Shown here: positions 12,204-53,864 of the stretch, one piece after another
Position numbering within the stretch: the first letter of the stretch is position 1
Layout of the letters: each line of letters opens with the position of its first letter
From: Planctomycetota bacterium
GTDB lineage: Bacteria > Planctomycetota > J058
Direction: 5' to 3'
Assembly (NCBI GenBank): GCA_024711205.1
Contig: JANJTH010000829.1
Coordinates: 3,309-67,308 of the forward strand
DNA: 64,000 nucleotides
Program-made: the position numbers and the translations under genes
The notes under the pieces: generated by a model
What the model was told of the DNA's origin: nothing
Databases searched by the model: none
Seen by the model: the letters and a program-made list of their open reading frames with translations, nothing else

Positions 12204-12274
12204 GCTCCAGCTCCGAAGAGATGGAGCATGGCAGGCCGGTCCGACATGGCCGGTCAGACGGCGCGTGTCGATCG

Positions 12275-16949: not shown

Positions 16950-16960
16950 CGGAGGCGCTC

Positions 16961-28600: not shown

Positions 28601-31600
28601 GCTCCTCGAGTCCGGACCAGGCCAGGGACGAGGACGAGGGCGGCGTCCTCTCCTGGATCATCGACCTGTGCCTCGCCCATCGCGTCGTCGTGCTCATCGC
28701 CGCGGCGCTGCTCGCCGCGGTGGGCGCCTACGCCCTGCAGCGCCTGCCCCTCGACGCCTTCCCCGACACCACGCCCGTCCAGGTCACCGTCAACACGGTC
28801 GCCCCGACGCTCTCGCCGCTCGAGGTCGAGCGGCAGATCACGCTTCCCGTCGAGCAGGTCTTGAACGGGCTGCCGGGCATCCACGAGGCCCGCTCGATCT
28901 CGAAGTTCGGCCTCTCGCAGGTCACGCTCATCTTCGAGGACGACGTCGGCATCTACCTGGCCCGGCAGGTCGTCTCCGAACGGCTCGCGAGCGTCCAGCT
29001 CCCGGACGGCATCGAGCGCCCGACCTTGGGCCCCGTCTCGACCGGCCTGGGCGAGGTCTTCCACTACCTCGTCACCGGAGACGGCAAGAAGAGCCTCTCC
29101 GAGCTACGCACGGTGCACGACTGGGTGATTCGCCCCCCGCTGAGCGCGGTCCCCGGCGTGGCCGAGATCAACGCCTGGGGCGGCGAGGAGCGCCAGCTCC
29201 AGGTCGTCGTCGACCCGGACCTCCTGATCAAGCACGACCTGCGGCCCGACGACGTCGTGCAGGCCCTCCGCCGCAACAACACGAGCGTCGGCGGCGGCGT
29301 GCTCACGCAGGCCGGTGAGGCGACGCTCGTCCAGGGGCTCGGGCTCGCCGCGACCCAGGACGACCTGCGCGACGTGGTGATCGCCGCGCACCAGGGCGTG
29401 CCCATCCGCGTCCGAGACGTGGCCCGCGTCGAGGACGGCCACGAGGTCCGGCGCGGCGCCGTGACGGCGGACGGCAAGGGCGAGGCGGTGCTCGGCCTGG
29501 GCTTCATGCTCATGGGTGAGAACAGCCGCGTCGTCACGCTGCGCCTCGCCGAGCGGCTGGAGGAGGTCAAGAAGACCCTCCCGCCCGGCGTCCACGTCGA
29601 GCCCGTCTACTCGCGCACGAGCCTCGTCGACCACGTGCTCGAGACGGTCCGCAAGAACTTGCTCGAGGGCGCGCTCCTCGTCATCGCCGTCCTGTTCGCG
29701 TTCCTCGGCAACCTCCGCGCCGGGCTGATCGTCGCGCTCGCGATCCCGCTGTCGATGCTGTGCGCCTTCGACCTCATGCTGCGCTTCGGGATCGCCGGCA
29801 GCCTCATGAGCCTCGGCGCCATCGACTTCGGCCTGGTCGTCGACAGCTCCGTGATCATGGTCGAGAACGCCGCGCGCCGGCTCGGCGAGGACCGGAGCGA
29901 GCGCAGCGTGCGCGAGGTCGTGCGCGACGCGGCCATCGAGGTCCGCCGCCCGACGCTCTTCGGCGAGCTCATCATCATGATCGTCTACCTGCCGATCCTG
30001 ACCCTCGAGGGCGTCGAGGGGAAGCTCTTCCGGCCCATGGCGCTCACCGTGATCTTCGCGCTGATCGGCTCCATGGTCCTCTCGCTGACCGTCATGCCTG
30101 TGCTCGCGAGCCTGGCGCTGAAGCGCGGGTCAGCTGGCCACGACGACAACTTCGTGGTCCGGGCCCTGAAGTGGCTCTATCGCCCGGTCGTCGCCGGCGC
30201 GCTGCGCTGGCCGGTCGTCGTCCTCGTAGGCGCCGTCCTGGCTGTGATCGGCGGCGGCGTGCTTGCCTCGCGGCTGGGCTCCGAGTTCGTGCCTCGCCTC
30301 CGCGAGGGCGCGATCGTCGTCAACACCGTGCGCCTCGCGAGCGTGTCTCTCGAAGAGAGCGTGCGCTACGGGACGCGGATCGAACTCCTCCTGCGCGAGC
30401 GCTTCCCCGACGAGGTCGAGCGCGTCTGGACGCGCACCGGCACGGCCGAGGTCGCCACGGACCCCATGGGCCTCGAGCTCTCCGACGTGTTCGTCACGCT
30501 GACGCCGCGTGAGCGCTGGACCAAGGCCAGCACGCAGGACGAGCTCGTCGTCGCCATGAGCGAGGTCGTGCGCCGGCTCCCCGGCATGAAGGCGATCTTC
30601 ACGCAGCCGATCGAGATGCGCGTGAACGAGATGATCGCGGGCGTCCGGGCAGACCTCGGCATCAAGCTCTTCGGCGACGACCTGGAGGTCTTGAAGGCCA
30701 AGGCCGCCGAGATCCAGACGGTCGTCCAGGCGCTCCCGGGAGCGGCCGACGTCTCGGCCGAGCAGGTCACGGGCCTGCCCGTGCTGCAGGTGACGGTCGA
30801 TCGCCCGGCGATCTCGCGCTACGGCATCACCGTCGACGACGTCCTCGACGCCGTCGCCATGCTCGGGACCAAGCAGGTCGGCGAGGTGAAGGAGGGCGCG
30901 CGTCGCTTCGACCTCGTCGTCCGGCTCGACGACCGCTTCCGCGTCGACCCCGACGCCGTCGGCTCCATCCTCATCCCGACGCCGGACGGCCAGCGCATCC
31001 CGCTCTCGAGGCTGGCCCGGGTCGAGGTCATCGAGGGCCCATCCACGATCCAACACGAGTGGGGCAAGCGCCGGATCGTCGTCCAGGCGAACGTCCGCGG
31101 CCGCGACATCAGCTCCTTCGTCGCCGACGTGCAGCGCGCGCTCGAGGAGAAGGTCCCGCTCCCCGCCGGCTACCGGGTCGACTTCGGCGGACAGTTCGAG
31201 CACCTCGTCGCAGCGCGGCAACGCCTGCTGGTCGTCGTCCCGCTGGCGCTGGCCCTGGTCCTGACGCTGCTCTACGTCACGTACGGCCGCGTGCTGGACG
31301 CGCTGCGCGTCTTCACCGGCGTGCCCTTCGCCGCCGTGGGCGGCGTGCTCGCGCTCTGGCTGCGCGACCTGCCGTTCAGCATCTCGGCGGCCGTCGGCTT
31401 CATCGCGCTGTGCGGCGTCTCGGTGCTGGGCGACATGGTCCTCGTCTCGACGATCCGCCAGCTCCTCGCGACGGGCATGCCCATCGACGACGCGATCCGT
31501 AAGGCCGCCGAGACGCGCCTACGTCCGGTCCTCATGACCGCTCTCGTGGCCGCCCTCGGGTTCCTGCCCATGGCCCTCAACACGGGCATCGGCGCCGAGG

Positions 31601-31740
31601 TCCAGCGGCCGCTCGCGACCGTCGTCATCGGGGGAGTCGCGTCCTCGACGCTGCTCACGCTCGTCGTCCTCCCCGTCCTCTACTCCGTGATGCGCCCGCG
31701 CAGCGGGCCCGGCTCATCGACCACCACTCGCATCGACTGA
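28597..31740 (+). CDS. Heavy-metal efflux RND transporter (HME family)
   Basis: Candidate GTG start overlapping the MFP stop (GTGA), but the start is uncertain. Conserved region begins 'LSWIIDLCLAHRVVVLIAAALLAAVGAYALQRLPLDAFPDTTPVQV'. About 1040 aa. Confidence 0.9.
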   Translation: MSSSSPDQARDEDEGGVLSWIIDLCLAHRVVVLIAAALLAAVGAYALQRLPLDAFPDTTPVQVTVNTVAPTLSPLEVERQITLPVEQVLNGLPGIHEARSISKFGLSQVTLIFEDDVGIYLARQVVSERLASVQLPDGIERPTLGPVSTGLGEVFHYLVTGDGKKSLSELRTVHDWVIRPPLSAVPGVAEINAWGGEERQLQVVVDPDLLIKHDLRPDDVVQALRRNNTSVGGGVLTQAGEATLVQGLGLAATQDDLRDVVIAAHQGVPIRVRDVARVEDGHEVRRGAVTADGKGEAVLGLGFMLMGENSRVVTLRLAERLEEVKKTLPPGVHVEPVYSRTSLVDHVLETVRKNLLEGALLVIAVLFAFLGNLRAGLIVALAIPLSMLCAFDLMLRFGIAGSLMSLGAIDFGLVVDSSVIMVENAARRLGEDRSERSVREVVRDAAIEVRRPTLFGELIIMIVYLPILTLEGVEGKLFRPMALTVIFALIGSMVLSLTVMPVLASLALKRGSAGHDDNFVVRALKWLYRPVVAGALRWPVVVLVGAVLAVIGGGVLASRLGSEFVPRLREGAIVVNTVRLASVSLEESVRYGTRIELLLRERFPDEVERVWTRTGTAEVATDPMGLELSDVFVTLTPRERWTKASTQDELVVAMSEVVRRLPGMKAIFTQPIEMRVNEMIAGVRADLGIKLFGDDLEVLKAKAAEIQTVVQALPGAADVSAEQVTGLPVLQVTVDRPAISRYGITVDDVLDAVAMLGTKQVGEVKEGARRFDLVVRLDDRFRVDPDAVGSILIPTPDGQRIPLSRLARVEVIEGPSTIQHEWGKRRIVVQANVRGRDISSFVADVQRALEEKVPLPAGYRVDFGGQFEHLVAARQRLLVVVPLALALVLTLLYVTYGRVLDALRVFTGVPFAAVGGVLALWLRDLPFSISAAVGFIALCGVSVLGDMVLVSTIRQLLATGMPIDDAIRKAAETRLRPVLMTALVAALGFLPMALNTGIGAEVQRPLATVVIGGVASSTLLTLVVLPVLYSVMRPRSGPGSSTTTRID

Positions 31741-31750
31741 AGGAGCTCTC

Positions 31751-32098
31751 ATGACTCGTCTCTTCGCCTCCGGCCTCGTCCTGTGCGCCTCGCTCGTCCT
31801 CGGCGGCTGCCCGAACTCTCAGGCGCCCGCGACGCCCCCGCCCGCGCCGGCTCCGACGGCTCCCGCGCCCACGACGGCGCCGGCCCCCGCGACCGGTGAG
31901 CACGGCACCGCGGCCAACGACTGGTGCGGCGGCCACGGCGTGCCCGAGTCGATCTGCACCCGCTGCAACGAGTCTCTGATCGCCGGCTTCAAGGAGAAGA
32001 AGGACTGGTGCGCCGAGCACAACCTCCCCGAGTCGCAGTGCCTCACCTGCAATCCGGAGCTCAAGGCCAAGTTCGAGGCCATGGCTCCGAAGCGGTAG
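31751..32098 (+). CDS. Stand-alone lipoprotein made of two copies of the WCxxHxLPESxCxxCNP repeat (putative periplasmic metal-binding module)
   Basis: Lipobox 'LVLGGCPNS'. Pro/Ala linker. Then 'DWCGGHGVPESICTRCNESLIAGFKEKKDWCAEHNLPESQCLTCNPELKAKF'. Lies 10 nt after the RND stop. Confidence 0.7.
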   Translation: MTRLFASGLVLCASLVLGGCPNSQAPATPPPAPAPTAPAPTTAPAPATGEHGTAANDWCGGHGVPESICTRCNESLIAGFKEKKDWCAEHNLPESQCLTCNPELKAKFEAMAPKR

Positions 32099-32241
32099 AT
32101 GATCGCCGCGACGAGCGCTCGCCTGCGAGCGCTCGTCGTCGCGTCTCCTTCGTCGAGCAAGCTCAGCGGTGCGACGCCTGCCACTGTAGGGGCGGCCAGG
32201 ATAGAACGCCTGAACGACGATGTGACCGAGGCAGCCAGGCG

Positions 32242-33501
32242 ATGGACACGGCGGGTCAAGCGGGCGGCGCGAGTGTGACTCCTGCCCCTCACCAGCTGCC
32301 AGCAGTTCCGACTCGTGCGCGTGGTTCCGCGCTCGAGGTCCTCGGCGTGTTCACGAAGCTCGGGCTCACGTCGTTTGGCGGTCCGATCGCGCACCTCTCC
32401 TACTTCCAGGCCGAGCTCGTCGAGCGGCGGCGCTGGGTCGATCAGGAGACCTACGCGGACCTGGTCGCGCTGTGCCAGTTCCTGCCCGGGCCGGCGAGCA
32501 GCCAGGTCGCCATGGCGATCGGGATCGAGCGGGCCGGCCTCCTCGGCGGCCTCGCCGCCTGGGTCGGGTTCACCCTCCCTTCCGCGCTCGCACTCACCCT
32601 CTTCGCCCTCGGCCTCGGCACGTTCGCCACCCAGGGCGATGCGGGTTGGATCCACGGACTCAAGGTCGTGGCCGTCCCGATCGTGGGGCTCGCGATCCAT
32701 GGCATGGCGGAGAAGCTCTGTCCCGACCGTCGACGCGCGACGATCGCCGTCGCCGCGGCGCTCATCGCCATGGTCTTCGAGGCCGCCCTCGCGCAGGTCG
32801 GGATCATCCTCGGCGCGGGGCTGGTCGGCTGGGCGCTCTACCGCGACGAGCCCCGCTCCGCCGTCCATGACGCTCCCGCGCCTCTCTCGCCCTGGCAGGG
32901 AGTCGTCGCCTGGGTCGTCTTCTTTGCCCTGCTCCTCGGCCTCCCGCTCCTCAGCGCGGCGATCCGACATCCTGGCGTCGACGTCTTCGAGCGCTTCTAC
33001 CGCGTGGGCGCGCTCGTGTTCGGCGGGGGACACGTCGTCCTGCCGCTCCTCGAGCGCGAGGTCGTCGACCCGGGCTGGACCACGAGCGACCGGTTTCTCG
33101 CGGGCTACGGCGCCGCGCAGGCTGTCCCTGGCCCGCTCTTCTCGTTCGCGGCGTACCTGGGGTTCATCCTCGACACGACCCCGACCCGCTGGGCTGGCGC
33201 TGCGCTCGCGCTCGTGGCGATCTTCCTCCCCTCGTATCTGCTCGTCGTGGGCGCGCTGCCGTTCTGGTCACGGCTCCGGGGCTCACCCGCGTGCCAGGCA
33301 GCGCTGCGCGGGACGAACGCCTCCGTCGTGGGTCTGCTCCTCGCTGCCTTCTACGACCCGGTGTGGCGGGTGGCGATCCACTCGCGAGCGGACTTTGGCC
33401 TCGCCCTCGGGGCGTTCCTCGCCCTCGCCGTGTGGAAGCTTCCGCCCTGGCTCGTCGTGATGCTGACCGCGTTCGCCAGCGCGCTCGTTCCGAAGCCCTG
33501 A
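32242..33501 (+). CDS. chrA: Chromate ion transporter (CHR family)
   Basis: 'LEVLGVFTKLGLTSFGGPIAHLSYFQAELVERRRWVDQETYADLVALCQFLPGPASSQ' and a second half 'VGALVFGGGHVVLPLLE'. This duplicated CHR fold is typical of ChrA. Confidence 0.85.
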   Translation: MDTAGQAGGASVTPAPHQLPAVPTRARGSALEVLGVFTKLGLTSFGGPIAHLSYFQAELVERRRWVDQETYADLVALCQFLPGPASSQVAMAIGIERAGLLGGLAAWVGFTLPSALALTLFALGLGTFATQGDAGWIHGLKVVAVPIVGLAIHGMAEKLCPDRRRATIAVAAALIAMVFEAALAQVGIILGAGLVGWALYRDEPRSAVHDAPAPLSPWQGVVAWVVFFALLLGLPLLSAAIRHPGVDVFERFYRVGALVFGGGHVVLPLLEREVVDPGWTTSDRFLAGYGAAQAVPGPLFSFAAYLGFILDTTPTRWAGAALALVAIFLPSYLLVVGALPFWSRLRGSPACQAALRGTNASVVGLLLAAFYDPVWRVAIHSRADFGLALGAFLALAVWKLPPWLVVMLTAFASALVPKP

Positions 33502-34683: not shown

Positions 34684-35391
34684 ATGCGAGCTCGTCATCG
34701 TTTCGGAGCGATCGTCCTGGCCTCGTCGCTGGCCCTCTCGGCCAGCGCCGTCGTCCAGGCCGACGACACCCCTGGTGCTCAGCAAACGGGAGCCGCGGCC
34801 GTCAACATGGCCCAGCTCAACGTCGAAGGGATGACGTGACCCGGCGGCTGAGGCGCTAAAGTCTCACGAGCCCTGGAAGGGCTCGCCGGCGTTTCGCGTG
34901 TGACCCCACACGATCAGAAGAAGTTCGACGTTCAGTACGACCCTGCCCGCGTCACCCCGCAACAGCTCCTGGCGGCGGTGCAAGGACTCGGTTATCGGCC
35001 CACGGTCGACGGTCCGATCAGCGCGATCGCGGACACCAGCGCCGTGGCCATCAAGGCCAAGGCAGGTGCGGCCGGCCATGCGGCCGGCGCGACGGGCGAG
35101 GTCGTGGTGAAGCTCAGCCCGAAGGCGGGGAACCGCCTGGGCGGCGAGGGACAGGTCGCGACGAAGGTCGTCGTGACCGGCACCGACATGGTGCAGGTCC
35201 CCAACGGAGAGGTCCGCGTGGCGGAGGCCCTCTCGGCCGACCGCGAGGTGAAGATCCCCATCCGGATCAAGGATGGCGCCACCGCTGGAGAGCAGGTCGT
35301 CGTCGTCCGCGTCACGTTCCAGGCTCGCAGCGGCGACACGAGCGCCGCCGAGCAGACGATCGAGCTGCGCATCCCGGTCGTCATCCAGTAA
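34684..35391 (+). CDS. Periplasmic HMA-domain (MerP/CopZ-like) protein with both metal-binding Cys positions encoded by in-frame TGA; candidate selenoprotein, otherwise a pseudogene
   Basis: AGGAG ribosome-binding site 5 nt upstream. Signal peptide 'MRARHRFGAIVLASSLALSASAVVQA'. The sequence '...AVNMAQLNVEGMT-TGA-PGG-TGA-GAKVSRALEGLAGVSRVTPHDQKKFDVQYDP...LAAVQGLGYRP' aligns residue for residue with the MerP 'GMTCxxC...VEGVSKVDV...' fold. A hairpin GAGCCC-UGGAA-GGGCUC starts 15 nt after the second TGA. Confidence 0.5.
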
Positions 35392-37313: not shown

Positions 37314-37442
37314 GCCCGCGTGGCGATTAGGTCATTGCACAGCTCGGCCGGTGACCACGGCATGCGCTCCAAGGTGTTCGTAGCGACGAGGGCGAGACGG
37401 GTGCCCCGCGGGTGCACTCGCGACGCGTGCTACGGTCACATC

Positions 37443-37799
37443 ATGGAGACCACGCTGTCGCCTCTCCGCGTCTTCCCGCTCTTTGTCCTCACCGCGTGCG
37501 CCGAGATCGTCGGCTGCTACCTGCCCTACCTGTGGCTGCGGAAGGAGAAGCCCATGTGGCTCCTCCTTCCTGCCGCGCTCTCCCTCGCGGTCTTTGCGTG
37601 GCTGCTCACGCTTCATCCCACGGCGGCAGGTCGCACCTACGCCGCCTACGGCGGGGTGTACGTGGCGACCGCCATCGCGTGGCTCTGGCTCGTCGAAGGG
37701 CAGCGACCTGACCGGTGGGACATCATCGGCGCGGCCGTCTCGATCTTCGGCATGGTGATCGTCGCCTTCGGCCCGCGGCCACCCGCTCCCCCGGCTTGA
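37443..37799 (+). CDS. ynfA: YnfA/UPF0060-family small membrane protein
   Basis: '[87 protein letters not shown]' is the four-TM YnfA signature. Confidence 0.7.
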
Positions 37800-37870
37800 C
37801 TCCGTTCCCTGGTACAGGGCGTAGGCTGACCCGCCGTGATCGGGCCCAGCTGCCGAGCGGAGCGCGTGCG

Positions 37871-38317
37871 ATGAGGTGGATCATGACGATCTTCGTGGTC
37901 GCGCTCGCGGGCTGCCCAGGGGAGTCCGGACAGCGCGAAGGCGGAGCGCGAACCTCCGAGCCAGTCACCCCGGCGCCGGTGCAGAGCTCGGCGCCCCCTG
38001 CGCCGCCCGAGGACGAGTGTGTCTGCTCGCTCTCCGCGGGTGAGCTCTCGGAGCGCGAGAAGTGGCTCTCGTCCTTCGCGTCCGGGGCCAGTCAGCTCCG
38101 GGAGGTACCGGACGGCTTCGAGTGCCGGTTCCCGAGCACCTGGGGCGCACGGCTGCTCGACCTCGTCGAGAAGGAGCGCGCCTGCTGCTCCTCCCTCACG
38201 TTCGCGCTGCAGTTCGAGCCGGAGAGCGGTCCGATCGTCCTCCGTTGCCGCGGGCCCGTGGCGGCAGTGTCGTTCATCAGATCTCGACTCGTCGTGGAGC
38301 AAGCCCGTCGGCCGTAG
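37871..38317 (+). CDS. Hypothetical Cys-containing lipoprotein
   Basis: Lipobox 'VVALAGCPG'. Pro-rich linker. 'CVCSLS...FECRF...ERACCSS...LRCRG'. Confidence 0.45.
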   Translation: MRWIMTIFVVALAGCPGESGQREGGARTSEPVTPAPVQSSAPPAPPEDECVCSLSAGELSEREKWLSSFASGASQLREVPDGFECRFPSTWGARLLDLVEKERACCSSLTFALQFEPESGPIVLRCRGPVAAVSFIRSRLVVEQARRP

Positions 38318-38395
38318 GCCCTCGCCACGCCGACCGCGTCCTCGATCACCGCGGGTCGACGGGATCGGAAGCGGCCGGAGCGCAGCCCCTCCGCT

Positions 38396-39166
38396 TCATG
38401 CCTTGCCCAGCTTGAGGCGGATCGTGCGTGTCTCGCCGCCAACCGTGCGCACGAGCAGGGTGAACTCCTGTCCCGCGGGGATCGCCCCGACGGCGGAGAT
38501 CAGCCGATCGGGCCCCTCGATCGTCTGACCGTCGATGCCTAGGATCGTCATGCCGGCTTCGAGGCCGGCCGCGGCGACGGGGGCGCCCGGCGTGACGGAC
38601 TCGATCGAGATCGACTTCTTGTCCTCGGAGAGCTTGAGGCGTAGCCCGAGGAAGTCGTCGCCGCCGCCGGTGTCGCCGAGCTGGAAGCGGCCCCTGCAGC
38701 CCACGCAACAGAAGTAGTAGGTCTTCCCGTCCTTCTCCAGGGAGATCTCCGGGTTGACCCGCGAGCCGCGGAAGACCGGGCAGTAGAGGTAGTCGGTCGT
38801 GTGGGCGTCGAACGTCCGCGCGTTCTCCTCACTGGCGAATTGGAACGTCACGCCGTTCGCCGTCCGCGTCGCCACCGCGACGGCTGGGTCGAGCAACGTC
38901 CTCGAGACCGGGTCGAACCCCTGCGACGGCGCGTCACCGCTCCCCACCGCCGCCGTGTCCCAGCCCGACGCGCAGCAGGCCGTCTGGTGCCCGGCGCCCG
39001 AGAACGGCGACGAGCCGGGACCGCACGCCGGGTCCTCGCAGCTCTGACCCATGCACGACGCCTCCGCAGGAGCGTCGGCCGACGCCCCACAGCGCATGCT
39101 CCGGAGGCCGACGGCCCCCGCCCCGAACACAGCCGCAGCGACCAGCGTGACGACGGTCCTGTTCAT
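38396..39166 (-). CDS. Secreted YHS/TRASH-like metal-binding domain protein with a C-terminal PDZ domain
   Basis: Signal peptide. Cys-rich 'CMGQSCEDPACGPG...QTACCASGW'. 'GVTFQFASEENARTFDAHTTDYLYCPV...YYFCCVGCRGRF' is YHS/TRASH-like. 'SISIESVTPGAPVAAAGLEAGMTILGIDGQTIEGPDRLISAVGAIPAGQEFTLLV' is a PDZ domain. Lies 4 nt downstream of the merT fusion. Confidence 0.7.
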   Translation of the reverse strand: MNRTVVTLVAAAVFGAGAVGLRSMRCGASADAPAEASCMGQSCEDPACGPGSSPFSGAGHQTACCASGWDTAAVGSGDAPSQGFDPVSRTLLDPAVAVATRTANGVTFQFASEENARTFDAHTTDYLYCPVFRGSRVNPEISLEKDGKTYYFCCVGCRGRFQLGDTGGGDDFLGLRLKLSEDKKSISIESVTPGAPVAAAGLEAGMTILGIDGQTIEGPDRLISAVGAIPAGQEFTLLVRTVGGETRTIRLKLGKA

Positions 39167-39170
39167 GGGA

Positions 39171-40070
39171 TCACTCCTTCTCGTGCGAGGCGCACGACGG
39201 GCAGGGGGCCGGACGCGACGCGTCCGCGGGGCTGGTCTCGCCGACGACGAGACCAGCGAAGCTCGGGAACGCCGCGAAGCCGATCACGACGACGACCGCG
39301 GTCCAGAGCATGACCTTGTTGAACGCCAGCAGGCCGGAGCCCGGCGCCTCGCACGAGCCGTCCGGCGAGCATTCGACCTTCCGGTAGGTCAGACGGAACG
39401 CGACGGCGAGGAGGAGCCCGGCCGCCCCGAGCAGCCAGGGACGATGGGCGTCGAGGAAGCCCGCGACGCCGCCGGCCGAGACGCCGAACGCGACCAGGGC
39501 CAGCGGGAGCCAGCAGCAGGCCGACGACAGGATCGCCGAGGCCATAGCGCCCGCTGCCGCCAGCGTCCCGGCCCCGCCCCGCCCCGTCGGCGGGGGAGTC
39601 GCGGCGCGGGAGTCGCCCTCCGGCTCCCCCTGACCCTGGAGCGCACGTCGCTCCACGGCACGGACGTTCCCAAGGCAGCAGCTCCCCTGGGGGTTCGTCT
39701 CGGCGCAACGATCGAACTCGCGCCGGCACTGCTCGGTGATCGTGTCCGCGATCGTCGATGCGCCGGTGCGAGCGATCTCCGCCTCGATGTCCTCGGCGGT
39801 GTGGCCGAAGCAGTAGCAGAGCGGCCGCGGAGCCGCGGACTCCTTCGTCCCGATGCGCACGCTCACGTCCGAGGACGCGACGCGGTCGCCAGACTCGGGA
39901 TGGTAGTACGCCGTCGCGCAGCCCGCCGCAGGGCAGTGCCTCCAGCCCTCCGTGCAACCGAACGAGCCCAACGCAGCCGGCGTCAAGAGCGCCTGCACCG
40001 TGACCGCCCGCACCGGCTTCCCGCCTGCGCCGCAGCCCGGGCACACGGTGGCCGTCGCGGCCTGGCTCAC
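39171..40070 (-). CDS. merT: MerT-like mercuric-ion transporter fused to an N-terminal cytoplasmic Cys-rich domain (zinc-ribbon plus BFD-like CxC...C)
   Basis: C-terminal half 'LSSACCWLPLALVAFGVSAGGVAGF...RLTYRKVECSPDGSCEAPG' matches the MerT CC pair in TM1 and the C-x5-C loop with identical spacing. N-terminus has 'CPGCG...', 'CYCFGHTAEDIEAEIARTG', 'CRREFDRC...GSCC'. GTG start overlaps the merR stop (GTGA). Confidence 0.75.
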   Translation of the reverse strand: MSQAATATVCPGCGAGGKPVRAVTVQALLTPAALGSFGCTEGWRHCPAAGCATAYYHPESGDRVASSDVSVRIGTKESAAPRPLCYCFGHTAEDIEAEIARTGASTIADTITEQCRREFDRCAETNPQGSCCLGNVRAVERRALQGQGEPEGDSRAATPPPTGRGGAGTLAAAGAMASAILSSACCWLPLALVAFGVSAGGVAGFLDAHRPWLLGAAGLLLAVAFRLTYRKVECSPDGSCEAPGSGLLAFNKVMLWTAVVVVIGFAAFPSFAGLVVGETSPADASRPAPCPSCASHEKE

Positions 40071-40486
40071 GTGCCGACCTTCGTGGCCTTGCCGCTCCGC
40101 TCGTCGAGCACGTCGAGAATCGGGCACTGGCTCTTCAGGTCGGTGGCGCCGCACTGCTCCACCAGCCGCCCGAGCGCGCGCTTGAACGACCGCAAGGTGC
40201 GGAGCTTCTCGTCGATGTCCTTGAGCTTCGCCTCGGCCAGCTCCCGGACGTCCGAGCACGTCGTCGTGCGGGACACGCGGAGCGCCAGCAGCTCGTCGAT
40301 CTCCTTCAGGGTGAAGCCGAGGGCCTGCGCCTGCTTCACGAAGCTCAGGCGGCGGACGTCGTCCGCGTCGAAGTCGCGGTACCCGACCTTGCCGGGACGC
40401 GGGTCGGGCAGCAGGCCGCGCCGCTCGTAGTAGCGGACCGTCTCGACCCCCACGCCGCACGCCTTGGCCAGCTCGCCGATCGTCAT
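40067..40486 (-). CDS. merR: MerR-family metalloregulator with Hg-type cysteine triad spacing
   Basis: Canonical N-terminus 'MTIGELAKACGVGVETVRYYERRGLL'. Cys at positions 77, 112 and 121. Spacing of 35 and 9 is identical to Tn501 MerR C82/C117/C126. The promoter places the transcription start near this ATG, so the mRNA is leaderless. The upstream in-frame ATG (40498) lies inside the -10 element. Confidence 0.85.
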   Translation of the reverse strand: MTIGELAKACGVGVETVRYYERRGLLPDPRPGKVGYRDFDADDVRRLSFVKQAQALGFTLKEIDELLALRVSRTTTCSDVRELAEAKLKDIDEKLRTLRSFKRALGRLVEQCGATDLKSQCPILDVLDERSGKATKVGT

Positions 40487-40494
40487 GCCGAGGA

Positions 40495-40525
40495 GCATAC
40501 GGTCCGTACCTAGGTACGGGGTCAA
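40495..40525 (-). promoter_or_regulatory. MerR-type promoter: -35 TTGACC, 20-bp spacer holding a perfect 16-bp palindrome CCGTACCTAGGTACGG, -10 TATGCT
   Basis: Minus strand reads cTTGACCCCGTACCTAGGTACGGACCGTATGCTcctcggcATG. The long spacer with a dyad operator is the MerR-family hallmark. Confidence 0.6.
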
Positions 40526-40637
40526 GGGACAATCGGCAGAGCGTAGAGCTGCGCGGGTATCAGGGCAGGGGTTGAGCACGATCGAGCATCATGGGCACGC
40601 GGCGCGACGATCTTCCACAACGCGCCGAGGAGCTGTC

Positions 40638-40979
40638 ATGCCGAACGGATGGTGGGACTGGACGCCGAGCTGGAGCGAGAAGGCGCTCGACGACACGATC
40701 GCGCTCTGGGAACCGAAGTACCAGGAGCGTGACCCGAGCGTGAAGCTCACCCGCGAAGACGCGCGGGAGATCCTCACGAACCTCCACGGGTTCTTCGGGC
40801 TCCTCTCCAAGTGGGATGCCCAAGAGAAGGAGAAGCTCGCGAGCGCCGGTCCGCACGAACCGGGCGCCTCGGCCGAGGCGCCGAGCTCGTCGCCGATGCC
40901 CCCAGCGGATCGACCGAAGACGGCCGAGAAGAAGGCCCCGCGTCGGAGGCCACGGCGGAGCCAACCGCCAGGCGGATGA
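40638..40979 (+). CDS. Hypothetical Trp-rich small protein in a lower-GC stretch
   Basis: GAGGAG ribosome-binding site 5 nt upstream. 'MPNGWWDWTPSWSEKALDDTIALWEPKYQERD...'. Confidence 0.4.
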   Translation: MPNGWWDWTPSWSEKALDDTIALWEPKYQERDPSVKLTREDAREILTNLHGFFGLLSKWDAQEKEKLASAGPHEPGASAEAPSSSPMPPADRPKTAEKKAPRRRPRRSQPPGG

Positions 40980-41046: not shown

Positions 41047-41973
41047 ATGCCCGAGCTCCCCGACGTCGTCGTCTACATCGAGTGCCTCGAGCGGCGCGTC
41101 GTCGGGCAGAAGCTCGAGCGCGTGCGGATCGCGAGCCCGTTCGTCCTGCGCTCGGCCGACCCGCCGATCAGCTCCGCCGAGGGGAAGTCGGTCCGCGAGG
41201 TCCTGCGCCTCGGGAAGCGGATCGTCTTCGTGCTCGAGGACGACCTGTTCCTCGTCCTGCACCTCATGATCGCGGGCCGCCTCGCGTGGGCCGACCGCGG
41301 CGCGAAGATCCCCGGGAAGATCGGCCTCGCGGCGCTCGACTTCACGACCGGGACGCTGATCTTCCGCGAGGCCAGCACGAAGAAGCGCGCCTCGATGCAC
41401 CTGGTCCGCGGCGAGGACGGGCTCCGGCAGTTCGACCGCGGGGGCCTCGAGGTCCTGACCGCGAAGCTCGCCGACTTCCGGGCGGTCCTCGCTCGCGAAA
41501 ACCATACGATCAAGGTCGCTCTCGTCGATCCGACGCTCTTCAGCGGCATCGGCAACGCCTACTCCGACGAGATCCTCCATCGCGCGCGCCTCTCGCCCGT
41601 GAAGCTCACGTCGCGCCTCACACCCGACGAGACGAAGACGCTGTTCAAGGCCACGAAGGACGTCCTGGAGGAGTGGACCGAGCGCCTGCGCGGCGAGGTG
41701 GGCGAGGGCTTCCCCGACAAGGGCGTCACCGCCTTCCGCGAGGGCATGGCCGTCCACGGCCGGTACAAGCAGCCCTGCCCCGACTGCGGGTCGCCGGTGC
41801 AGCGCATCGTGCGCGGCGACCACGAGACGAACTACTGCGCGACGTGCCAGACGGGCGGCAAGCTCCTCGCCGACCGCGCGCTGTCGAAGCTCCTCAAGGC
41901 CGACTGGCCGAAGACGCTCGAGGAGCTCGAGGAGCGCATGCCGCGAAGCGCTCCGCCTACAGCGAAGCGTTAA
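41047..41973 (+). CDS. fpg: Formamidopyrimidine-DNA glycosylase (Fpg/MutM), full length
   Basis: 'MPELPDVVVYIECL' catalytic N-terminus (Pro2, Glu3). H2TH 'FSGIGNAYSDEILHRARLSP'. Zinc finger 'CPDCGSPVQRIVRGDHETNYCATCQTGG'. Confidence 0.9.
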   Translation: MPELPDVVVYIECLERRVVGQKLERVRIASPFVLRSADPPISSAEGKSVREVLRLGKRIVFVLEDDLFLVLHLMIAGRLAWADRGAKIPGKIGLAALDFTTGTLIFREASTKKRASMHLVRGEDGLRQFDRGGLEVLTAKLADFRAVLARENHTIKVALVDPTLFSGIGNAYSDEILHRARLSPVKLTSRLTPDETKTLFKATKDVLEEWTERLRGEVGEGFPDKGVTAFREGMAVHGRYKQPCPDCGSPVQRIVRGDHETNYCATCQTGGKLLADRALSKLLKADWPKTLEELEERMPRSAPPTAKR

Positions 41974-42071: not shown

Positions 42072-45000
42072 ATGAGGGATGGTGCGGTGTTCATTCCTGG
42101 CGAGGCGATCCAGCTGCCAGTCCTCAGACTCGCGGATGCGCGAAGGCGTATCGGCACCATCCAGCACGTCCTTCGCCCCGGCCGGAGCCTCACGATCAAG
42201 GAAGTGTCCGAGTCGCGGCTGAAATCCGGCAGAAAGGCCACACTCCTCGAGCTCTCGAACGAAGAGCGAATCCTGGTGACGCAGCAGAAGACCGCCGATA
42301 GGCCGGATGACGTGGACGCTGTCCTCCGCATCGTTGATGGAGAGGCGCCCACCTGGCTCGCCAGTAAGGTTCAAGACGCCTTCGTTGCGGCGACGGCCTC
42401 TGGGTACTCGAGCCAGGTCAAGGTCATCTCCGACGCTTGGCGCGCGACGTTCCAGTTCCCCAGCTCCGGGCGTGGGAGCGGGCGCCCCTGTCTCCGTCCC
42501 CCGCAGATCGGAGCGCTCCACGCGATCGCCGCGCACTGGACCCTGGGCACCGATCCCGCGACGGTGGTGATGCCGACCGGCACGGGCAAGACCGAGACGA
42601 TGCTCACCTGCGTCGTGGGCCTCGCCTGCAGCCCGACCCTCATCGTCGTCCCATCCGATGCGCTGCGCTCACAGACGGCGCGAAAGTTCAGGACGTTGGG
42701 TCTGCTGCGCCAGCTTGGAGTCCTTCCCGAGGACGCGCCCAACCCCATCGTCGGCATCGTGAACAAGCGGCCTCACTCGAAGGAGGAGATCGCGGAGGTC
42801 TTCGACAACTGCAACGTCGTCATTACTACGATGTCCGCACTGGCCCACTGCGCCGACGAGGGCCTGCTCGAGTCGCTCGAAGAGAGGGTCGACGCGCTGT
42901 TCGTCGACGAGGCCCACCACGTCGCGGCCCCCACATGGAACGCGCTCCGGGACGGGCTGCTCGGACGACGGATCCTCCAGTTCACCGCCACGCCGTTCCG
43001 GCGGGACGGGAAGATCGTCGACGGCGAGGTGGTCTACTCCTATCCGCTGCGCCGGGCGCAGGAGGAGGGCTTCTTCAAGCCGATCTCGTTCCGGCCGGTC
43101 TTCGAGGTCGACGCGGACGAGAAGGACAGGAGCATCGCCAAGGCCGCAGTGGAGCAACTCAACGCCGACCGCGCTCGCGGACTGGATCACCTGCTCATGG
43201 CCAGGTGCGACTCCATCAAGCGCGCCACGTCGGTGCTGGAGATCTATCAGGCCCTGGCCGGCGAGCACTCGCCCTTGCTCGTCCACTCCGACCTGCCCGA
43301 AGTCGAGAAGCTGGTCGCTCAAGTCGTCGCTGGCAAGAGCCGCGTCGTCGTCTGCGTCGACATGCTCGGAGAGGGGTTCGACCTGCCGCAGCTCAAGGTC
43401 GCCGCCGTCCATGACGTCCACAAGAGCTTGGCCGTGATCCTGCAGTTCACCGGCCGCTTCACGCGAAACGGTCCGAGCGACGTCGGCGACGCGACGGTCG
43501 TCGCCAACATCGCCGACGCGAACGTCTCCGAGGCCTTGGAGCGCCTCTACAGCGAGGATGCCGACTGGAATCACCTCCTCAGCGAGCTGAGCTCGACGGC
43601 GGTTCGCGACCACGCCGAGTTGATCGACTTCGTCCGAGAGTCGAAGCGACTCGATGAGGACGAGGTCGAGCCCACGCACCTCGCCATCTCGCCCAGGCTC
43701 CTGCGACCACGCTTCAGCACGGTCGTGTACCCGGGCAAGAAGTTCAGGCCGAAGCGCTTCCACGAGGCCATTCCGGATGGGACTCGAATACACGGCGTCT
43801 GGCTCTACAAGGCCAACACGCTGTACTTCGTCACGAAGACCCCGCTGCCCGTCCGCTGGAGCAGCTCGAAGGAAATCCACGACGAACGGTGGGATCTCAC
43901 CGTCGTCCACTTCGACGAGCCTCGGAGGCTGCTCTTCGTCCACTCGAGCGACAACGGCTCGCTTCACGAGCTGCTCGCACAGGTCGTGCTCGACTCGAAG
44001 GAGAGGGTGAAGCCGATCCAGGGCGACGTGGTGTTCCGCACGCTCGGGAACATCAACCGCCTCCTGTTCCAGAACGTCGGGGTGAGGAAGCATGGGCGCC
44101 GGAACATCAGCTACGCGATGTACACCGGGTCCGATGTCGAGAAGGCGCTCACCGAGGCGCAGACGGCGAACTCGATCAAATCCAACCTGACCGGAACGGG
44201 GTGGGAAGGCGGGCACCCCGTCGCCGTCGGCTGCTCCTACAAGGGACGCATCTGGTCGCAGCGCGGCCACGGTCCCATCCCGCGCTTCGTCGAGTGGTGC
44301 ACGACCGTCGGCACCAAGCTGCTTGACGCCTCCATCGACACGTCGAAGATCCTCACCCACGTCCTCATCCCGAAGGAGATCGACAAGCTGCCCGACGCTG
44401 TGCTCCTCGCGGTCGACTGGCCGATCGAGCTCGTCTCCAAGCTGGAGGAGCACCTCACGGTCGGCTGGGAGGGCAGGAGCAGCCCCTTCGGGGACCTCGA
44501 CCTCGTCGCCGGCGCAAGGCTCGGCGATCGAGAGGTGCAGTTCCACGTCCGCGGCGACGCTGGGCTCGACGCCGCCTTCAGCTTCGAGCTCCACAGCGAG
44601 GCTGGCTTCAAGATCACGCAGCTCACCGGAGCACAGCTCTCGATCGGCTCTGCCCGCGAACAGGTGTCGCTGGAGGGTTTCCTGTCCGAGACACCCCCGA
44701 TCTTCCGCTTCACGGACCTGTCCGAGCTCGACGGGACGCTCCTGACGGTCCCGAAGGACCCCACGAGCACGCCCATCCCGCCGACGCAGTTCTCCGATCG
44801 TTCCTGGCCGGGAGTCGACATCACGGTCGAGTCCATGTGGAAGGACGGCAAGCTTCGCCCGGACTCGATCCAGGGGCACATGGCGAAAGAGTTCATCGCT
44901 GCGGCCCATGACCTCGTGATCGACGACGATGGGAGCGGCGAGGCCGCGGACCTGGTGTGCTTCAAGGAGCACGCGGACCGGGTCGAGCTCGTCCTGGTCC

Positions 45001-45365
45001 ACTGCAAGTTCTCGGGGGCGGACGAGCCCGGCGAGCGGCTCAAGGACGTCGTGGAGGTCTGTGCGCAGGCGGTGCGGTCCGCGAAGTGGGTCTGGCGAAC
45101 GAGGGACCTGATGGCCCATCTCTTGCGCCGGGCGCGGACTCGATTGAAGGCTGGCCGCAATCCGTATCTCCGCGGCTCGGCGGCGACGCTCGGCCGAATT
45201 CAACAGGCGATGAAGTCCAAGCGGGTCGTCGCGGAAATCCTGGTCGTTCAGCCCGGTCTGTCCAAGGCCAACTGCTCGGCCAACCAGACCGCGATCCTGT
45301 CCGCGGCCCACACCTTCTTGCTCGAGACCGTCGAGGTCCGGATGCGCGTGATCTGCAGCCCGTGA
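42072..45365 (+). CDS. Large orphan SF2 (DEAH) helicase with a ~600-aa C-terminal extension of unknown function
   Basis: Motif I 'VVMPTGTGKTETM'. Ia 'LIVVPSDALRSQT'. II 'LFVDEAHHVA'. III 'LQFTATPFRRDG'. V 'VDMLGEGFDLP'. VI 'QFTGRFTRNG'. The tail has a possible PD-(D/E)xK-like patch 'ADLVCF...VELVLVHCK'. Local GC is lower than the flanks. Confidence 0.85.
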   Translation: MRDGAVFIPGEAIQLPVLRLADARRRIGTIQHVLRPGRSLTIKEVSESRLKSGRKATLLELSNEERILVTQQKTADRPDDVDAVLRIVDGEAPTWLASKVQDAFVAATASGYSSQVKVISDAWRATFQFPSSGRGSGRPCLRPPQIGALHAIAAHWTLGTDPATVVMPTGTGKTETMLTCVVGLACSPTLIVVPSDALRSQTARKFRTLGLLRQLGVLPEDAPNPIVGIVNKRPHSKEEIAEVFDNCNVVITTMSALAHCADEGLLESLEERVDALFVDEAHHVAAPTWNALRDGLLGRRILQFTATPFRRDGKIVDGEVVYSYPLRRAQEEGFFKPISFRPVFEVDADEKDRSIAKAAVEQLNADRARGLDHLLMARCDSIKRATSVLEIYQALAGEHSPLLVHSDLPEVEKLVAQVVAGKSRVVVCVDMLGEGFDLPQLKVAAVHDVHKSLAVILQFTGRFTRNGPSDVGDATVVANIADANVSEALERLYSEDADWNHLLSELSSTAVRDHAELIDFVRESKRLDEDEVEPTHLAISPRLLRPRFSTVVYPGKKFRPKRFHEAIPDGTRIHGVWLYKANTLYFVTKTPLPVRWSSSKEIHDERWDLTVVHFDEPRRLLFVHSSDNGSLHELLAQVVLDSKERVKPIQGDVVFRTLGNINRLLFQNVGVRKHGRRNISYAMYTGSDVEKALTEAQTANSIKSNLTGTGWEGGHPVAVGCSYKGRIWSQRGHGPIPRFVEWCTTVGTKLLDASIDTSKILTHVLIPKEIDKLPDAVLLAVDWPIELVSKLEEHLTVGWEGRSSPFGDLDLVAGARLGDREVQFHVRGDAGLDAAFSFELHSEAGFKITQLTGAQLSIGSAREQVSLEGFLSETPPIFRFTDLSELDGTLLTVPKDPTSTPIPPTQFSDRSWPGVDITVESMWKDGKLRPDSIQGHMAKEFIAAAHDLVIDDDGSGEAADLVCFKEHADRVELVLVHCKFSGADEPGERLKDVVEVCAQAVRSAKWVWRTRDLMAHLLRRARTRLKAGRNPYLRGSAATLGRIQQAMKSKRVVAEILVVQPGLSKANCSANQTAILSAAHTFLLETVEVRMRVICSP

Positions 45366-50790: not shown

Positions 50791-52143
50791 ATGAGGCTTC
50801 CACGTTCACGCAGGCTCCGCGCCTCGGCGCTCGCGCTCGTCGTCTTCACGACGGGCTGCATCGCCGGCTACTCGGAGTCGAGGGCCGAGGCCGACCGGTA
50901 TCGCGAGTCGCTCCGCTGGGAGGACGAGGCCGACCTCATCGGTCCCAACGCTCGTCCCGCGGACCCGGGCGACGCCGCGTTCGTTGGAACGCTCGTCCCC
51001 GCCTTGGTCGCGGACGAGGTCGTGCGTCGCAACCCGGACGTCCGCGCGGCCCTGGAGCGGTGGGTCGCCTACCTCGAGCGGGCGCCGCAGCGCACCGCGC
51101 TGCCGAACCCCGCGTTCGCCTACCGCTACTCGTCGATGTTCAAGATGCACACGTACGAGCTCATGCAGGAGGTGCCGTTCCCGGCCAAGCTCCTGGCCGA
51201 CGGGCGCGCGGCGCTCGCCGACGCGCGCGCCATGCGCGCCGAGCTCGACGAGCAGACGAACCTGCTTCGCGCGCGGGCCGAGCAGGCGCTCGCCAACCTC
51301 CACCTCGCGCGGCGCTCGCTCGAGCTCGTCGACCAGAACGCCGCGCTCGTGGACCGGTTCATCGAGATCGCCAACTCGCGTTACACCGCGGGGACGGCGA
51401 CGCAGTCCGACGTGCTCCGCGCGCAGGTCGAGCGCGAGGGGCTGCGGGAGGAGCGGGCCATGTTCGTCCGCGACGTGCAGGTGGCCGAGAGCATGCTCAA
51501 CGTGCTCCTCGACCGGGCGCCCGAGGCGCCCCTCGGGCCGGTGGCGATCGTCGACGCGCCCGGCGCGCTCGAGCCGTTGACGGTGCTCTACGAGCGCGCC
51601 CTGCAGCAGCGCCCCGAGCTGGCGGCGTTCCGCGCTCGCGCCGACGCGCAGCGCGAGATGCTCTCGCGCGCCCAGCTCGAGTGGGTGCCCGACTTCGTCG
51701 TCGGCGGCGGCTACGTGCGCGACTTCGGCGAGGACGAGGACCAGGTCGAGCTCACGGCGGGCCTGTCCCTGCCGGTGTGGCTGGGCCGGATCCGCGGCGG
51801 GGTCGCCGAGGCCGAGGCGAACGTCCGGCGGGCCGACGCGGAGACTCACTCGACGCGCAACCGCGTGTTCGACGAGGTGCGCCAGGCCGCCGCGCGGCTC
51901 GCCGCGGCGACCGAGCGATCGACGATCCTTCGCGAGGCGACGCTCCCGCGGGCCCGGCAGAACGTCGAGGTCTCGCAGGCGGCGTACGTCTCCGGCCAGC
52001 TCGGCTTCCTCGAGCTCGTCGACGCGCAGCGCGTGTCGCTCATGAAGGAGCTCGAGCTCGAGCGAGTCCGCGCAGAGCGGACGTCGGCTCAGGCGGAGCT
52101 GCGCCAGGCCACCGGTGATTCCACGACGGAGGAGAGGCCATGA
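50791..52143 (+). CDS. cusC: Outer-membrane efflux factor (CusC/TolC family), lipoprotein
   Basis: 'LALVVFTTGC' lipobox. OMF helical repeats. Overlaps cusB by 4 nt. Confidence 0.85.
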   Translation: MRLPRSRRLRASALALVVFTTGCIAGYSESRAEADRYRESLRWEDEADLIGPNARPADPGDAAFVGTLVPALVADEVVRRNPDVRAALERWVAYLERAPQRTALPNPAFAYRYSSMFKMHTYELMQEVPFPAKLLADGRAALADARAMRAELDEQTNLLRARAEQALANLHLARRSLELVDQNAALVDRFIEIANSRYTAGTATQSDVLRAQVEREGLREERAMFVRDVQVAESMLNVLLDRAPEAPLGPVAIVDAPGALEPLTVLYERALQQRPELAAFRARADAQREMLSRAQLEWVPDFVVGGGYVRDFGEDEDQVELTAGLSLPVWLGRIRGGVAEAEANVRRADAETHSTRNRVFDEVRQAAARLAAATERSTILREATLPRARQNVEVSQAAYVSGQLGFLELVDAQRVSLMKELELERVRAERTSAQAELRQATGDSTTEERP

Positions 52144-53861: not shown

Positions 53862-53864
53862 GCC

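Follow-up and report, generated by a model that had tools for sequence, protein, structure and literature searches.

A merR-headed cassette encoding a CopZ N-terminal domain fused to MerT in a metal-resistance island of a Planctomycetota bacterium

We analysed a stretch of 64,000 nucleotides from a Planctomycetota bacterium (GenBank assembly GCA_024711205.1, contig JANJTH010000829.1, positions 3,309 to 67,308), called the window below. On its minus strand we found a cassette of three genes that run head to tail: merR (40486-40067), a gene coding for a CopZ N-terminal domain (CopZ-NT) fused to MerT (40070-39171), and yhs-PDZ, coding for a protein with YHS and PDZ domains (39166-38396). We propose that this cassette is a self-regulated, Hg(II)-induced uptake and hand-off module, in which the CopZ-NT tethered to MerT would serve as an acceptor comparable to NmerA of the mercuric reductase MerA and would hand the metal to a MerA encoded elsewhere; we give this proposal about an even chance of being correct. 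All the parts come from known families, and their combination, regulation and breadth appear to be undescribed in the literature, where our searches for a link between CopZ-NT and MerT found nothing. The comparisons were made on a set of 83 loci, composed of 80 loci from a scan of the GTDB species representatives, the window and two Logan contigs, and these loci are cited below by their numbers (L003, for example).

The regulator, its operator and the start of the transcript

The merR gene (40067-40486, minus strand) codes for a protein of 139 residues with the Pfam domains MerR_1 (1e-20) and MerR-DNA-bind. Among the NCBIfam models the best score was that of the Hg MerR model TIGR02051 (140.2 bits), followed by ZntR (121.7 bits), CueR (109 bits) and CadR-PbrR (95.6 bits). 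The closest structures in the PDB were the MerR of Bacillus (4ua1, 100 bits) and the MerR of Tn501 (5crl, 91.5 bits), with lesser matches to CadR (73 bits), PbrR691 (72 bits) and CueR (58 bits). The alignment showed that Cys77, Cys112 and Cys121 of the window MerR share the columns of Cys82, Cys117 and Cys126 of Tn21 MerR, and the protein has the equivalents of the three Hg(II) ligands of Tn501 MerR together with the proline that follows the last of them (Pro122). In MerR, the three cysteines bind Hg(II) in a trigonal geometry and the proline after the third one is functionally important (PMC5027573); the corresponding residue is an alanine in CadR and a glycine in PbrR691. The columns of the triad are invariant in 40 MerR proteins linked to the fusion. 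The first-pass annotation of this DNA had taken the spacing of the cysteines (35 and 9 residues) as the mark of a mercury sensor: the correspondence with Tn21 holds, but the spacing is not exclusive to Hg and was rejected as a unique signature, since PbrR691 (5gpe) has cysteines in the same columns.

The minus-strand sequence leading into merR is TTGACC CCGTACCTAGGTACGG ACCG TATGCT CCTCGGC ATG, with the ATG at 40486, 7 nucleotides past the -10 element. This MerR-type promoter, P1 (40494-40525, minus strand), is made of the -35 element TTGACC (40525-40520) and the -10 element TATGCT (40499-40494), which are separated by a spacer of 20 bp, and the operator, a perfect 16-bp palindrome (40504-40519), lies inside the spacer and directly abuts the -35 element. 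The window merR has in this way a merO-type dyad within a promoter of the class with a 19-20 bp spacer. The half-sites CCGTAC-N4-GTACGG and their position relative to the -35 element equal those of the Tn21 operator/promoter (plasmid R100), TTGACT CCGTACATGAGTACGG AAG TAAGGT, from which the window differs in the central four bases and in its spacer of 20 bp, not 19 bp. The dyad occurred a single time in the window, against about 0.04 occurrences expected by chance even with one mismatch allowed. A custom scan for TTGACN-19/20-TAnnnT found only two sites in the window, P1 and a second one (P2, described below); a standard sigma-70 scan, which allows spacers of 16-18 bp only, gave no match at P1. 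The identical 16-mer stands upstream of merR in L003, L052, L085, L087 and L089. P1 is invariant in the window, L085, L087 and L089, and differs in L003 by one base of the -35 element and by a -10 element TAGACT, while the DNA around it diverges in all these loci. The cysteine triad and this operator support the assignment of the window protein as an Hg-type MerR acting on a mer-type operator.

The start codon of merR, ATG or GTG, lies exactly 7 nucleotides after the -10 element in the window, L085, L087, L089 and L003, and the 7 nucleotides vary among these five loci and hold no Shine-Dalgarno sequence. An alternative ATG at 40498 falls inside the -10 element TATGCT; the four codons read from this ATG are not conserved as protein (MLLG, MLPG, MLRG, MLSD), and L003 has no such ATG. 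Among more distant loci, several have their start 6-9 nucleotides past the -10 element and others have leaders of 17-23 nucleotides with a Shine-Dalgarno sequence. A leaderless merR message is thus likely in this clade, from the conserved spacing in the five loci and the missing Shine-Dalgarno sequence. The promoter with its palindrome had been described in the first-pass annotation exactly as we find it, and the leaderless start that was deduced there is held to be probable.

The TGA stop codon of merR and the GTG start codon of the fusion overlap as GTGA (40070-40067), and yhs-PDZ starts 4 nucleotides past the stop codon of the fusion, preceded by the Shine-Dalgarno sequence AAGGAG, which bears out the earlier claim of a single transcript for the three genes in the form of a coupled operon. 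The cassette is flanked upstream by a divergent gene (40638-40979), itself followed by a Fpg/Nei gene, and downstream by a convergent lipoprotein gene (37871-38317); therefore no other gene can join its transcript. The conserved DNA block extends over 2.14 kb of the window (38396-40537), from about 10 nucleotides upstream of the -35 element to the stop codon of the third gene. The DNA comparison with the window gave the same boundaries in L085, L087, L088 and L089, whose flanks are unrelated. In L087 the cassette is surrounded by genes for HicA, ParB, a LexA-like protein and ArdA, which suggests a mobile element around it, and the 2.1-kb self-regulated cassette is apparently mobile. In the comparison with relatives, merR had a ratio of nonsynonymous to synonymous substitution rates (dN/dS) of 0.15-0.25, the fusion one of 0.24-0.36 and yhs-PDZ one of about 0.2, and the three genes are therefore all kept by selection. 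A reading of the cassette as a relic or pseudogene was rejected: no open reading frame is broken, dN/dS lies at 0.15-0.36, and independent samples gave the identical protein. The G+C content of the window is 71.6%.

The CopZ-NT and MerT fusion and its family

The fusion protein has 299 residues, of which 18 are cysteines. Its residues 1-145 (39636-40070, minus strand) are predicted to be cytoplasmic and include the CopZ N-terminal domain, which spans residues 8-135. Pfam gave zf_CopZ at residues 8-68 (39.9 bits, gathering threshold 28.4) and a weak Fer2_BFD at residues 84-109, and the NCBIfam model NF047645, "putative iron-sulfur cluster-binding metallochaperone", gave 86.4 bits, under its cut-off of 100. 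A phmmer comparison with the PDB entry 2hu9 (E=3.7e-8) aligned all nine cysteine residues of the Archaeoglobus fulgidus domain; the cysteine set of CopZ-NT is C10, C13, C46, C51, C85, C87, C122, C131 and C132. The AlphaFold2 (AF2) model of the fusion, built with 79 homologues, has a predicted local distance difference test (pLDDT) score above 90 over CopZ-NT, and its predicted template-modelling score of 0.55 makes the arrangement of the domains unreliable. Foldseek matched the CopZ-NT model to 2hu9 with a probability of 1.00 and a target-normalised TM-score of 0.81. These profile matches and this modelled fold identify the N-terminal part of the fusion as the CopZ N-terminal Zn/[2Fe-2S] domain (PF18423, NF047645, 2HU9), which was already known, and not as the novel one suggested when it was first called unusual. 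It is predicted to carry a Zn site and a [2Fe-2S] site. In A. fulgidus, both Zn and a [2Fe-2S] cluster are bound by the CopZ domain, through which Cu(II) is reduced (PMC7558416). The two domains share the fold and the nine aligned cysteines, including CYC and CC; however, the A. fulgidus protein is soluble, has the domain fused to a cytoplasmic HMA domain and works with copper (Cu(II) reduction and delivery to CopA; PMC7558416), whereas here a MerT membrane domain follows CopZ-NT in the fusion, under an Hg-type MerR.

The remaining residues, 146-299 with the stop codon (39171-39635, minus strand), form a linker, the three-helix MerT domain and a short tail that would be periplasmic. Pfam MerT was found at residues 173-269 with 36.2 bits (gathering threshold 32.9). 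The domain is 37% identical to Tn21 MerT and gave 50 bits with the NCBIfam MerT equivalog NF010314, not reaching its cut-off of 150, as a distant family member. The membrane helices of the AF2 model are residues 167-194, 199-229 and 245-275. Both functional cysteine pairs are kept, as had been noticed before: C185/C186 in the first transmembrane helix (TM1) and C234-x5-C240 in the cytoplasmic loop align with C24/C25 and C76/C82 of Tn21 MerT, and the domain has in all the family score, the three helices and the two pairs that characterise MerT (PF02411). The N-terminus of MerT is cytoplasmic, and so must be any Fe-S domain that has no export signal; CopZ-NT would therefore lie beside the cytoplasmic loop of MerT. 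This supports the view of the first-pass annotation that the additional domain is on the side where NmerA normally accepts Hg. CopZ-NT would share with NmerA this position, as a cysteine-bearing cytoplasmic acceptor beside the MerT loop, and the MerA proteins that neighbour the family lack NmerA. It differs from NmerA in its fold, a zinc ribbon plus a BFD-like Fe-S part and not a ferredoxin-like HMA domain, and in being tethered to the transporter and not to the reductase. By analogy, CopZ-NT may be the functional equivalent of NmerA.

We found 487 database matches for homologues of the fusion, mostly in Planctomycetota, Myxococcota and Verrucomicrobiota, and nearly all of the 120 listed among these 487 have zf_CopZ together with MerT. 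The fusion belongs thus to a large existing family, and its description as an unusual architecture was not borne out. The relatives carry the database labels "MerT family protein", "cation transporter" and "copper chaperone CopZ". The alignment showed that most of them have one or two MerP-like HMA domains after the third membrane helix, on the periplasmic side, and the architecture of the family is therefore CopZ-NT, MerT and MerP. The HMA domain is absent from the window fusion and from its closest relatives (P0002-P0006), which keep the cysteine pair of a short tail; Pfam found no HMA domain in the operon, where only the tail, C290-P-S-C293, aligns with the GMTCxxC motif of the HMA domain of the relatives. 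At least 90% of the family, among them a relative 83% identical to the window protein, have a DCC or GCC pair in the linker; the window protein has D-S-R at this place (residues 154-156, 39602-39610). The stand-alone CopZ-NT proteins begin with M-D-C-C, the same DCC motif, which may be a mobile tail for the pick-up of metal that the window variant has lost. MerTP fusions (NF033556) and the MerT/CopZ fusion-like selenoprotein (NF045683) share with most relatives of the window protein the order of MerT followed by a periplasmic HMA domain, whereas the window fusion has only the CPSC remnant and has, in addition, the cytoplasmic CopZ-NT; it scored far below the cut-offs of both models (40.6 against 180 bits and 20 against 375 bits, respectively).

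Planctomycetota, Myxococcota and Verrucomicrobiota supplied most loci of the compared set, and Eisenbacteria and Krumholzibacteriia a few. The full fusion is present in 56 of the 83 (54 GTDB loci, the window and L001) and CopZ-NT alone in 23, and the best match to the window fusion among the GTDB representatives is 57% identical. A MerR-family gene adjoins the fusion in about 40 of the 54 GTDB loci, mostly upstream on the same strand and always with the cysteine triad, and nearly all these loci have a promoter of the form TTGACY-palindrome-TAnnnT. In L006, L016, L042 and L089 the neighbourhood of the fusion includes, on its strand, a gene for true MerA, defined by the active site GGTCVNxGCxPSK and the C-terminal tail LSCCA, and all four proteins lack NmerA. 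L012 and L023 have MerB homologues flanking the fusion; about 90% of the fusion loci show no mercury enzyme within the DNA examined. Behind the cassette of L089, where the fusion has kept its HMA domain, come plain merTP, a true merA without NmerA and a second regulator that is CueR-like. A stand-alone copZNT gene directly follows merT-merP in 8 of the 23 loci with CopZ-NT only. The order merR-merT-merP-copZNT occurs in L070 and L071, the operator of L070 being merO-like, CCGTACCTGGGTACAG. No MerA core was present in the loci with unfused merT-merP-copZNT, and the place of CopZ-NT in these operons is that of merA in Tn21. The occurrence of CopZ-NT and MerT both as one protein and as adjacent genes is therefore independent evidence that they work together.

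One of the loci with merB, L023 (a metagenome-assembled genome (MAG) of Myxococcales, positions 8000-12500), has merB, a merC-like gene and merR running one way and, in the opposite direction, a CopZNT-MerT-HMA fusion with a pyridine-nucleotide-disulfide oxidoreductase, whose active site is GGTCALRGCDPKK and which lacks a C-terminal CC. In L033, too, the fusion has this oxidoreductase behind it, a possible non-canonical Hg reductase.

Compared with the mer operons of Tn21 and Tn501, the window cassette shares the equivalents of C82, C117 and C126, the half-sites abutting TTGACY, the over-long spacer, and the CC and C-x5-C pairs of MerT. It differs in that its merR is the first gene and co-directional, not divergent, in having no merP, merA or merD, in its additional YHS-PDZ gene, and in the N-terminal CopZ-NT of roughly 165 residues on MerT. 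In mer operons of the Gram-positive type (Bacillus RC607, pI258), merR comes first and shares with the structural genes a transcript made from a regulated promoter of its own. The window shares this position of merR, and its MerR is closest to that of Bacillus (4ua1); the Gram-positive operons, in contrast, encode MerA and often MerB, and have neither CopZ-NT nor YHS-PDZ. To our knowledge, a leaderless start is not a described feature of these operons.

The YHS-PDZ protein and the surrounding island

The third gene, yhs-PDZ (38396-39166, minus strand), codes for a protein of 256 residues that passed the Pfam gathering scores for YHS (32.4 against 30.3 bits), PDZ (33.3 against 23.2 bits, 6e-8) and PDZ_2 (27.2 against 27 bits). 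It begins with a hydrophobic signal or anchor, after which come a conserved cysteine-rich stretch (SCxGQSCEDPAC ... TACCASGWD), a degenerate YHS repeat, a cysteine-bearing YHS/TRASH repeat and the PDZ domain; the N-terminal region has 6 cysteines, in addition to the TRASH site. The second repeat has C129, C153, C154 and C157; the first one has no cysteines in this clade and keeps them in more distant relatives. The family is tiny: a word-indexed search of a database of 5.8 billion proteins gave 6 clusters, and a set of 1.84 billion proteins contained about 7 representatives of full length, the remaining matches there covering PDZ only. Wherever the context is known, yhs-PDZ is directly downstream of the fusion. 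The idea that it strictly replaces the lost HMA domain is weakened by L089, which has a fusion with HMA alongside yhs-PDZ, and the loss of HMA was therefore a later step within the clade. Docking of the PDZ domain on the C-terminus of the transporter was not supported, the tails being charged (HEKE, HAKE, SRKE, RSDR) and not hydrophobic PDZ ligands.

The second MerR-type promoter, P2 (37796-37827, plus strand), reads TTGACT CCGTTCCCTGGTACAGGGCG TAGGCT with a 20-bp spacer and was found by the custom scan. Its core is merO-like (CCGTTC...GTACAG), and it is conserved in L085/L086 as TTGACT CCGTACCTGGTACAGGGCG TAGGCT; the MerR of the cassette may bind there. Downstream of P2, and convergent with the cassette, lies the gene for a cysteine-rich lipoprotein of 148 residues with the lipobox LAGC and CVC/C/CC motifs (37871-38317, plus strand), which had no match in Pfam or NCBIfam. 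Its family is tiny, with copies 79% identical beside the cassette in L085/L086 and a 35% identical homologue in L019. We found no MerR-family gene in the window besides merR at 40486, and because the window has this single one, the lipoprotein gene probably belongs to the regulon of the cassette MerR. The gene ynfA (UPF0060, SMR-like, with C-x4-C in TM1; NCBIfam NF002586, 158 bits; 37401-37799, plus strand) forms with the lipoprotein gene a second conserved DNA block (37403-38323), which is 85% identical in L085. It also stands beside the merR/fusion pair in L003, L016, L019, L038 and L039, which belong to unrelated genomes. We know of no established metal-related role of YnfA.

A candidate periplasmic partner is a secreted HMA-domain protein (34684-35391, plus strand), 3 kb from the cassette on the opposite strand; its reading frame contains TGA twice, at 34837 and 34849 (GMT-U-PGG-U). 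Pfam HMA was found when TGA was read as cysteine. The best NCBIfam model was NF041115, "UxxU metal-binding (seleno)protein", with 54 bits (cut-off 95), and a stable hairpin follows the UGA codons (z=-4.3). Homologues are directly downstream of the fusion in L003 (8650-9150), L021 (2380-2700) and L042 (12150-12650), with conserved TGA columns (UxxxU, UxxU and UxxC, respectively). The gene likely codes for a MerP-like protein with two selenocysteine residues (Sec-HMA), and its earlier designation as a partner of the cassette gains comparative support from these homologues.

The window is a heavy-metal resistance island throughout, with four or more RND pump/MFP sets (such as 4622-9480, 14173-20179, 26825-31740 and 52140-57395), an outer-membrane factor, P1B ATPases (22669-24843; 60631-63036, with YHS and HMBD domains; a third one starting at about 63373) and ChrA (31924-33501). 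No tRNA or housekeeping genes were found in the window. A Fpg/Nei-like glycosylase gene is present as a full copy beside merR (41137-41973, plus strand) and as a partial copy about 37 kb away (3335-3787, minus strand), the two being 67% identical over about 150 residues, which hints at a duplication in the island or a mosaic assembly. Beyond the full copy, a gene at 42072-45365 (plus strand) codes for a ResIII/DEAD helicase-family protein of 1097 residues with a long uncharacterised C-terminal half, and may be a defence or mobile-element gene.

A proposed mercury hand-off and its alternatives

In the proposed module, MerR would sit on the merO-like palindrome between the -35 element and the -10 element, 20 bp apart, and Hg(II) bound at the three-cysteine site (C77' with C112 and C121) would cause it to activate transcription. 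The transcript would start at or next to the start codon of merR and would be a leaderless messenger RNA for merR, the fusion and yhs-PDZ, with translation coupled by the GTGA overlap and by the 4-nucleotide gap with its Shine-Dalgarno sequence. In the periplasm, Hg(II) would be captured by the cysteine-rich YHS-PDZ protein, and the CPSC tail, as a MerP-like remnant, the Sec-HMA protein and the lipoprotein may also help in this capture. The ion would then pass to C185/C186 in TM1 of MerT, to the loop pair C234/C240 and on to the tethered CopZ-NT, whose C131/C132 would be placed where NmerA would accept Hg. The final step would most likely be the transfer to an NmerA-less MerA core encoded elsewhere in the genome, delivery to such an unlinked MerA being the most conservative option for the fate of the imported mercury.

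A number of observations weigh against this hand-off module. The window MerR, at 140.2 bits, misses the equivalog cut-off of TIGR02051 (150.85 bits), PbrR691 aligns with it without gaps, having cysteines in the three columns of the triad, and the operator cores of the family vary, being merO-, ZntR- or CadR-like; because they vary, the identity of an operator would reflect the DNA-binding module and not the metal. CopZ-NT is documented only in copper handling, with Cu(II) reduction in A. fulgidus (PMC7558416), some of its stand-alone copies stand beside P1B ATPases, and the window fusion has lost both the near-invariant DCC of the linker and the HMA domain. From its location and its cysteines, YHS-PDZ may capture periplasmic metal in the manner of MerP; its AF2 model is poor (pLDDT 47.5) and confident in PDZ only. 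The genes for mercury enzymes, merA or merB, lie within 10 kb in only about 5 of the 54 related loci, and the 64-kb window encodes no MerA, MerB or canonical MerP: tblastn with MerA, MerP, MerC, MerD and MerE of Tn21 found nothing else at E<=0.01, and the MerB query, validated by its matches in L012 and L023, gave only matches at chance level (best E=0.95). Uptake through merT/merP without a merA sink is expected to sensitise cells. The absence of merA and merP from the operon, pointed out in the first-pass annotation, holds and extends to merA, merB and a Tn21-type merP in the whole 64 kb. It had been concluded from it that the system serves something other than Hg(II) reduction, which does not follow, since the cassette adjoins merTP and a true merA in L089 and an NmerA-less merA lies near family members in L006, L016 and L042.

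Several of these points would suit a cassette for another metal (Cd, Pb, Zn, copper or gold), in which a MerR of the CadR, PbrR or ZntR kind would control a MerT-like domain that feeds a CopZ-type chaperone: the triad common to PbrR691, the good scores of the ZntR and CadR models, the MerR score under the TIGR02051 cut-off, and the operators of relatives that resemble ZntR or CadR sites. CopZ-NT and YHS are moreover known from copper systems; with its RND pumps, P1B ATPases and ChrA, the window is a multi-metal island; and Cu-type ATPases, CusA or ars genes are frequent in the related loci. We nevertheless consider another metal unlikely. The best matches of the regulator are both solved Hg-MerR structures, ahead by about 20-30 bits, it has the proline of MerR after the third cysteine in place of the alanine of CadR or the glycine of PbrR691, and the core of its operator equals merO; a cysteine at position 77 argues against a CueR-type sensor of +1 ions. 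MerT and MerP are mercury-specific families, and merA and merB are the sole metal-specific enzyme genes seen next to the family. With mercury as the substrate, CopZ-NT could itself be an unrecognised mer component that detoxifies without the flavoenzyme MerA, the MerT-tethered [2Fe-2S] protein reducing Hg(II) to Hg(0) with cellular electrons, or otherwise neutralising it, in the place of MerA. This is suggested by the unfused merR-merT-merP-copZNT operons, in which CopZ-NT takes the slot of merA and a MerA core is missing, by the absence of merA within 10 kb in about 90% of the fused loci, by the Cu(II) reduction mediated by the homologous A. fulgidus domain (PMC7558416), by the sister family NF045877, whose selenocysteine in place of the second cysteine of CC suggests a reactive site, and by the mobile DCC motif, similar to the CC tail at the C-terminus of MerA. 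MerA is rare in Planctomycetes and Verrucomicrobia, and a ferredoxin-dependent, MerA-independent reduction of Hg(II) has been proposed (PMC8261052), which makes a reductase-independent option worth testing. However, the reduction of Hg(II) to Hg(0) takes two electrons and a [2Fe-2S] cluster gives one, the cassette encodes no electron donor, and the window protein lacks the DCC motif. Where merA is present, it stands beside a family member (L089, L006, L016, L042), which fits a hand-off better. We therefore judge a MerA-free role of CopZ-NT to be distinctly improbable.

The first-pass annotation had also considered sequestration, and the induced proteins could simply buffer Hg(II), holding it on their cysteines in the periplasm and at the membrane and not passing it on. 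The cysteine content of the proteins would agree with this (18 in the fusion, 6 in the N-terminal region of YHS-PDZ plus its TRASH site, and those of the lipoprotein), as would the lack of a reductase in the window; but with a single tethered domain each protein would hold only about one mercury ion, few ions per protein would give little protection, most cysteines of CopZ-NT are ligands of the structural Zn and the Fe-S cluster, and the intact two-pair relay of MerT implies transport. Sequestration is, on this balance, very unlikely. Still harder to credit is a relay in the outward direction, in which the MerT cysteines would carry reducing equivalents or metal from the Fe-S domain to a periplasmic CxxC or HMA domain, in the manner of DsbD/CcdA or of an exporter. 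Its architecture, a cytoplasmic redox domain, cysteine pairs in the membrane and a periplasmic CxxC, would allow this, and no cytoplasmic sink is encoded; there is, against it, no precedent for a MerT working outwards, the family is homologous to importers, and the association with the cytoplasmic MerA or MerB in several loci implies inward delivery.

In the usual picture of mercury resistance, MerR controls transporters that feed the reductase MerA. The family described here is large and comes mainly from MAGs, and it places an Hg-type MerR over a MerT(P) that is fused to, or followed by, a CopZ-type domain, with the reductase usually not nearby; the window cassette, small (2.1 kb) and self-regulated, is easy to test in E. 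coli. If CopZ-NT is a cytoplasmic acceptor, it would explain how substrate is supplied to a MerA without NmerA. If it detoxifies mercury itself, which we hold for the less expected outcome, a new mercury-transforming activity would exist in phyla that surveys based on merA have scored as non-resistant. Such a MerA-free CopZ-NT would be a second dedicated enzymatic route of Hg detoxification in Planctomycetota, Verrucomicrobiota, Myxococcota and their relatives, and would give a genetic basis for the ferredoxin-type reduction of Hg(II) and for genomes that have MerB but no MerA. Either way, the catalogues of mer genes from which environmental mercury cycling is predicted would need a new marker.

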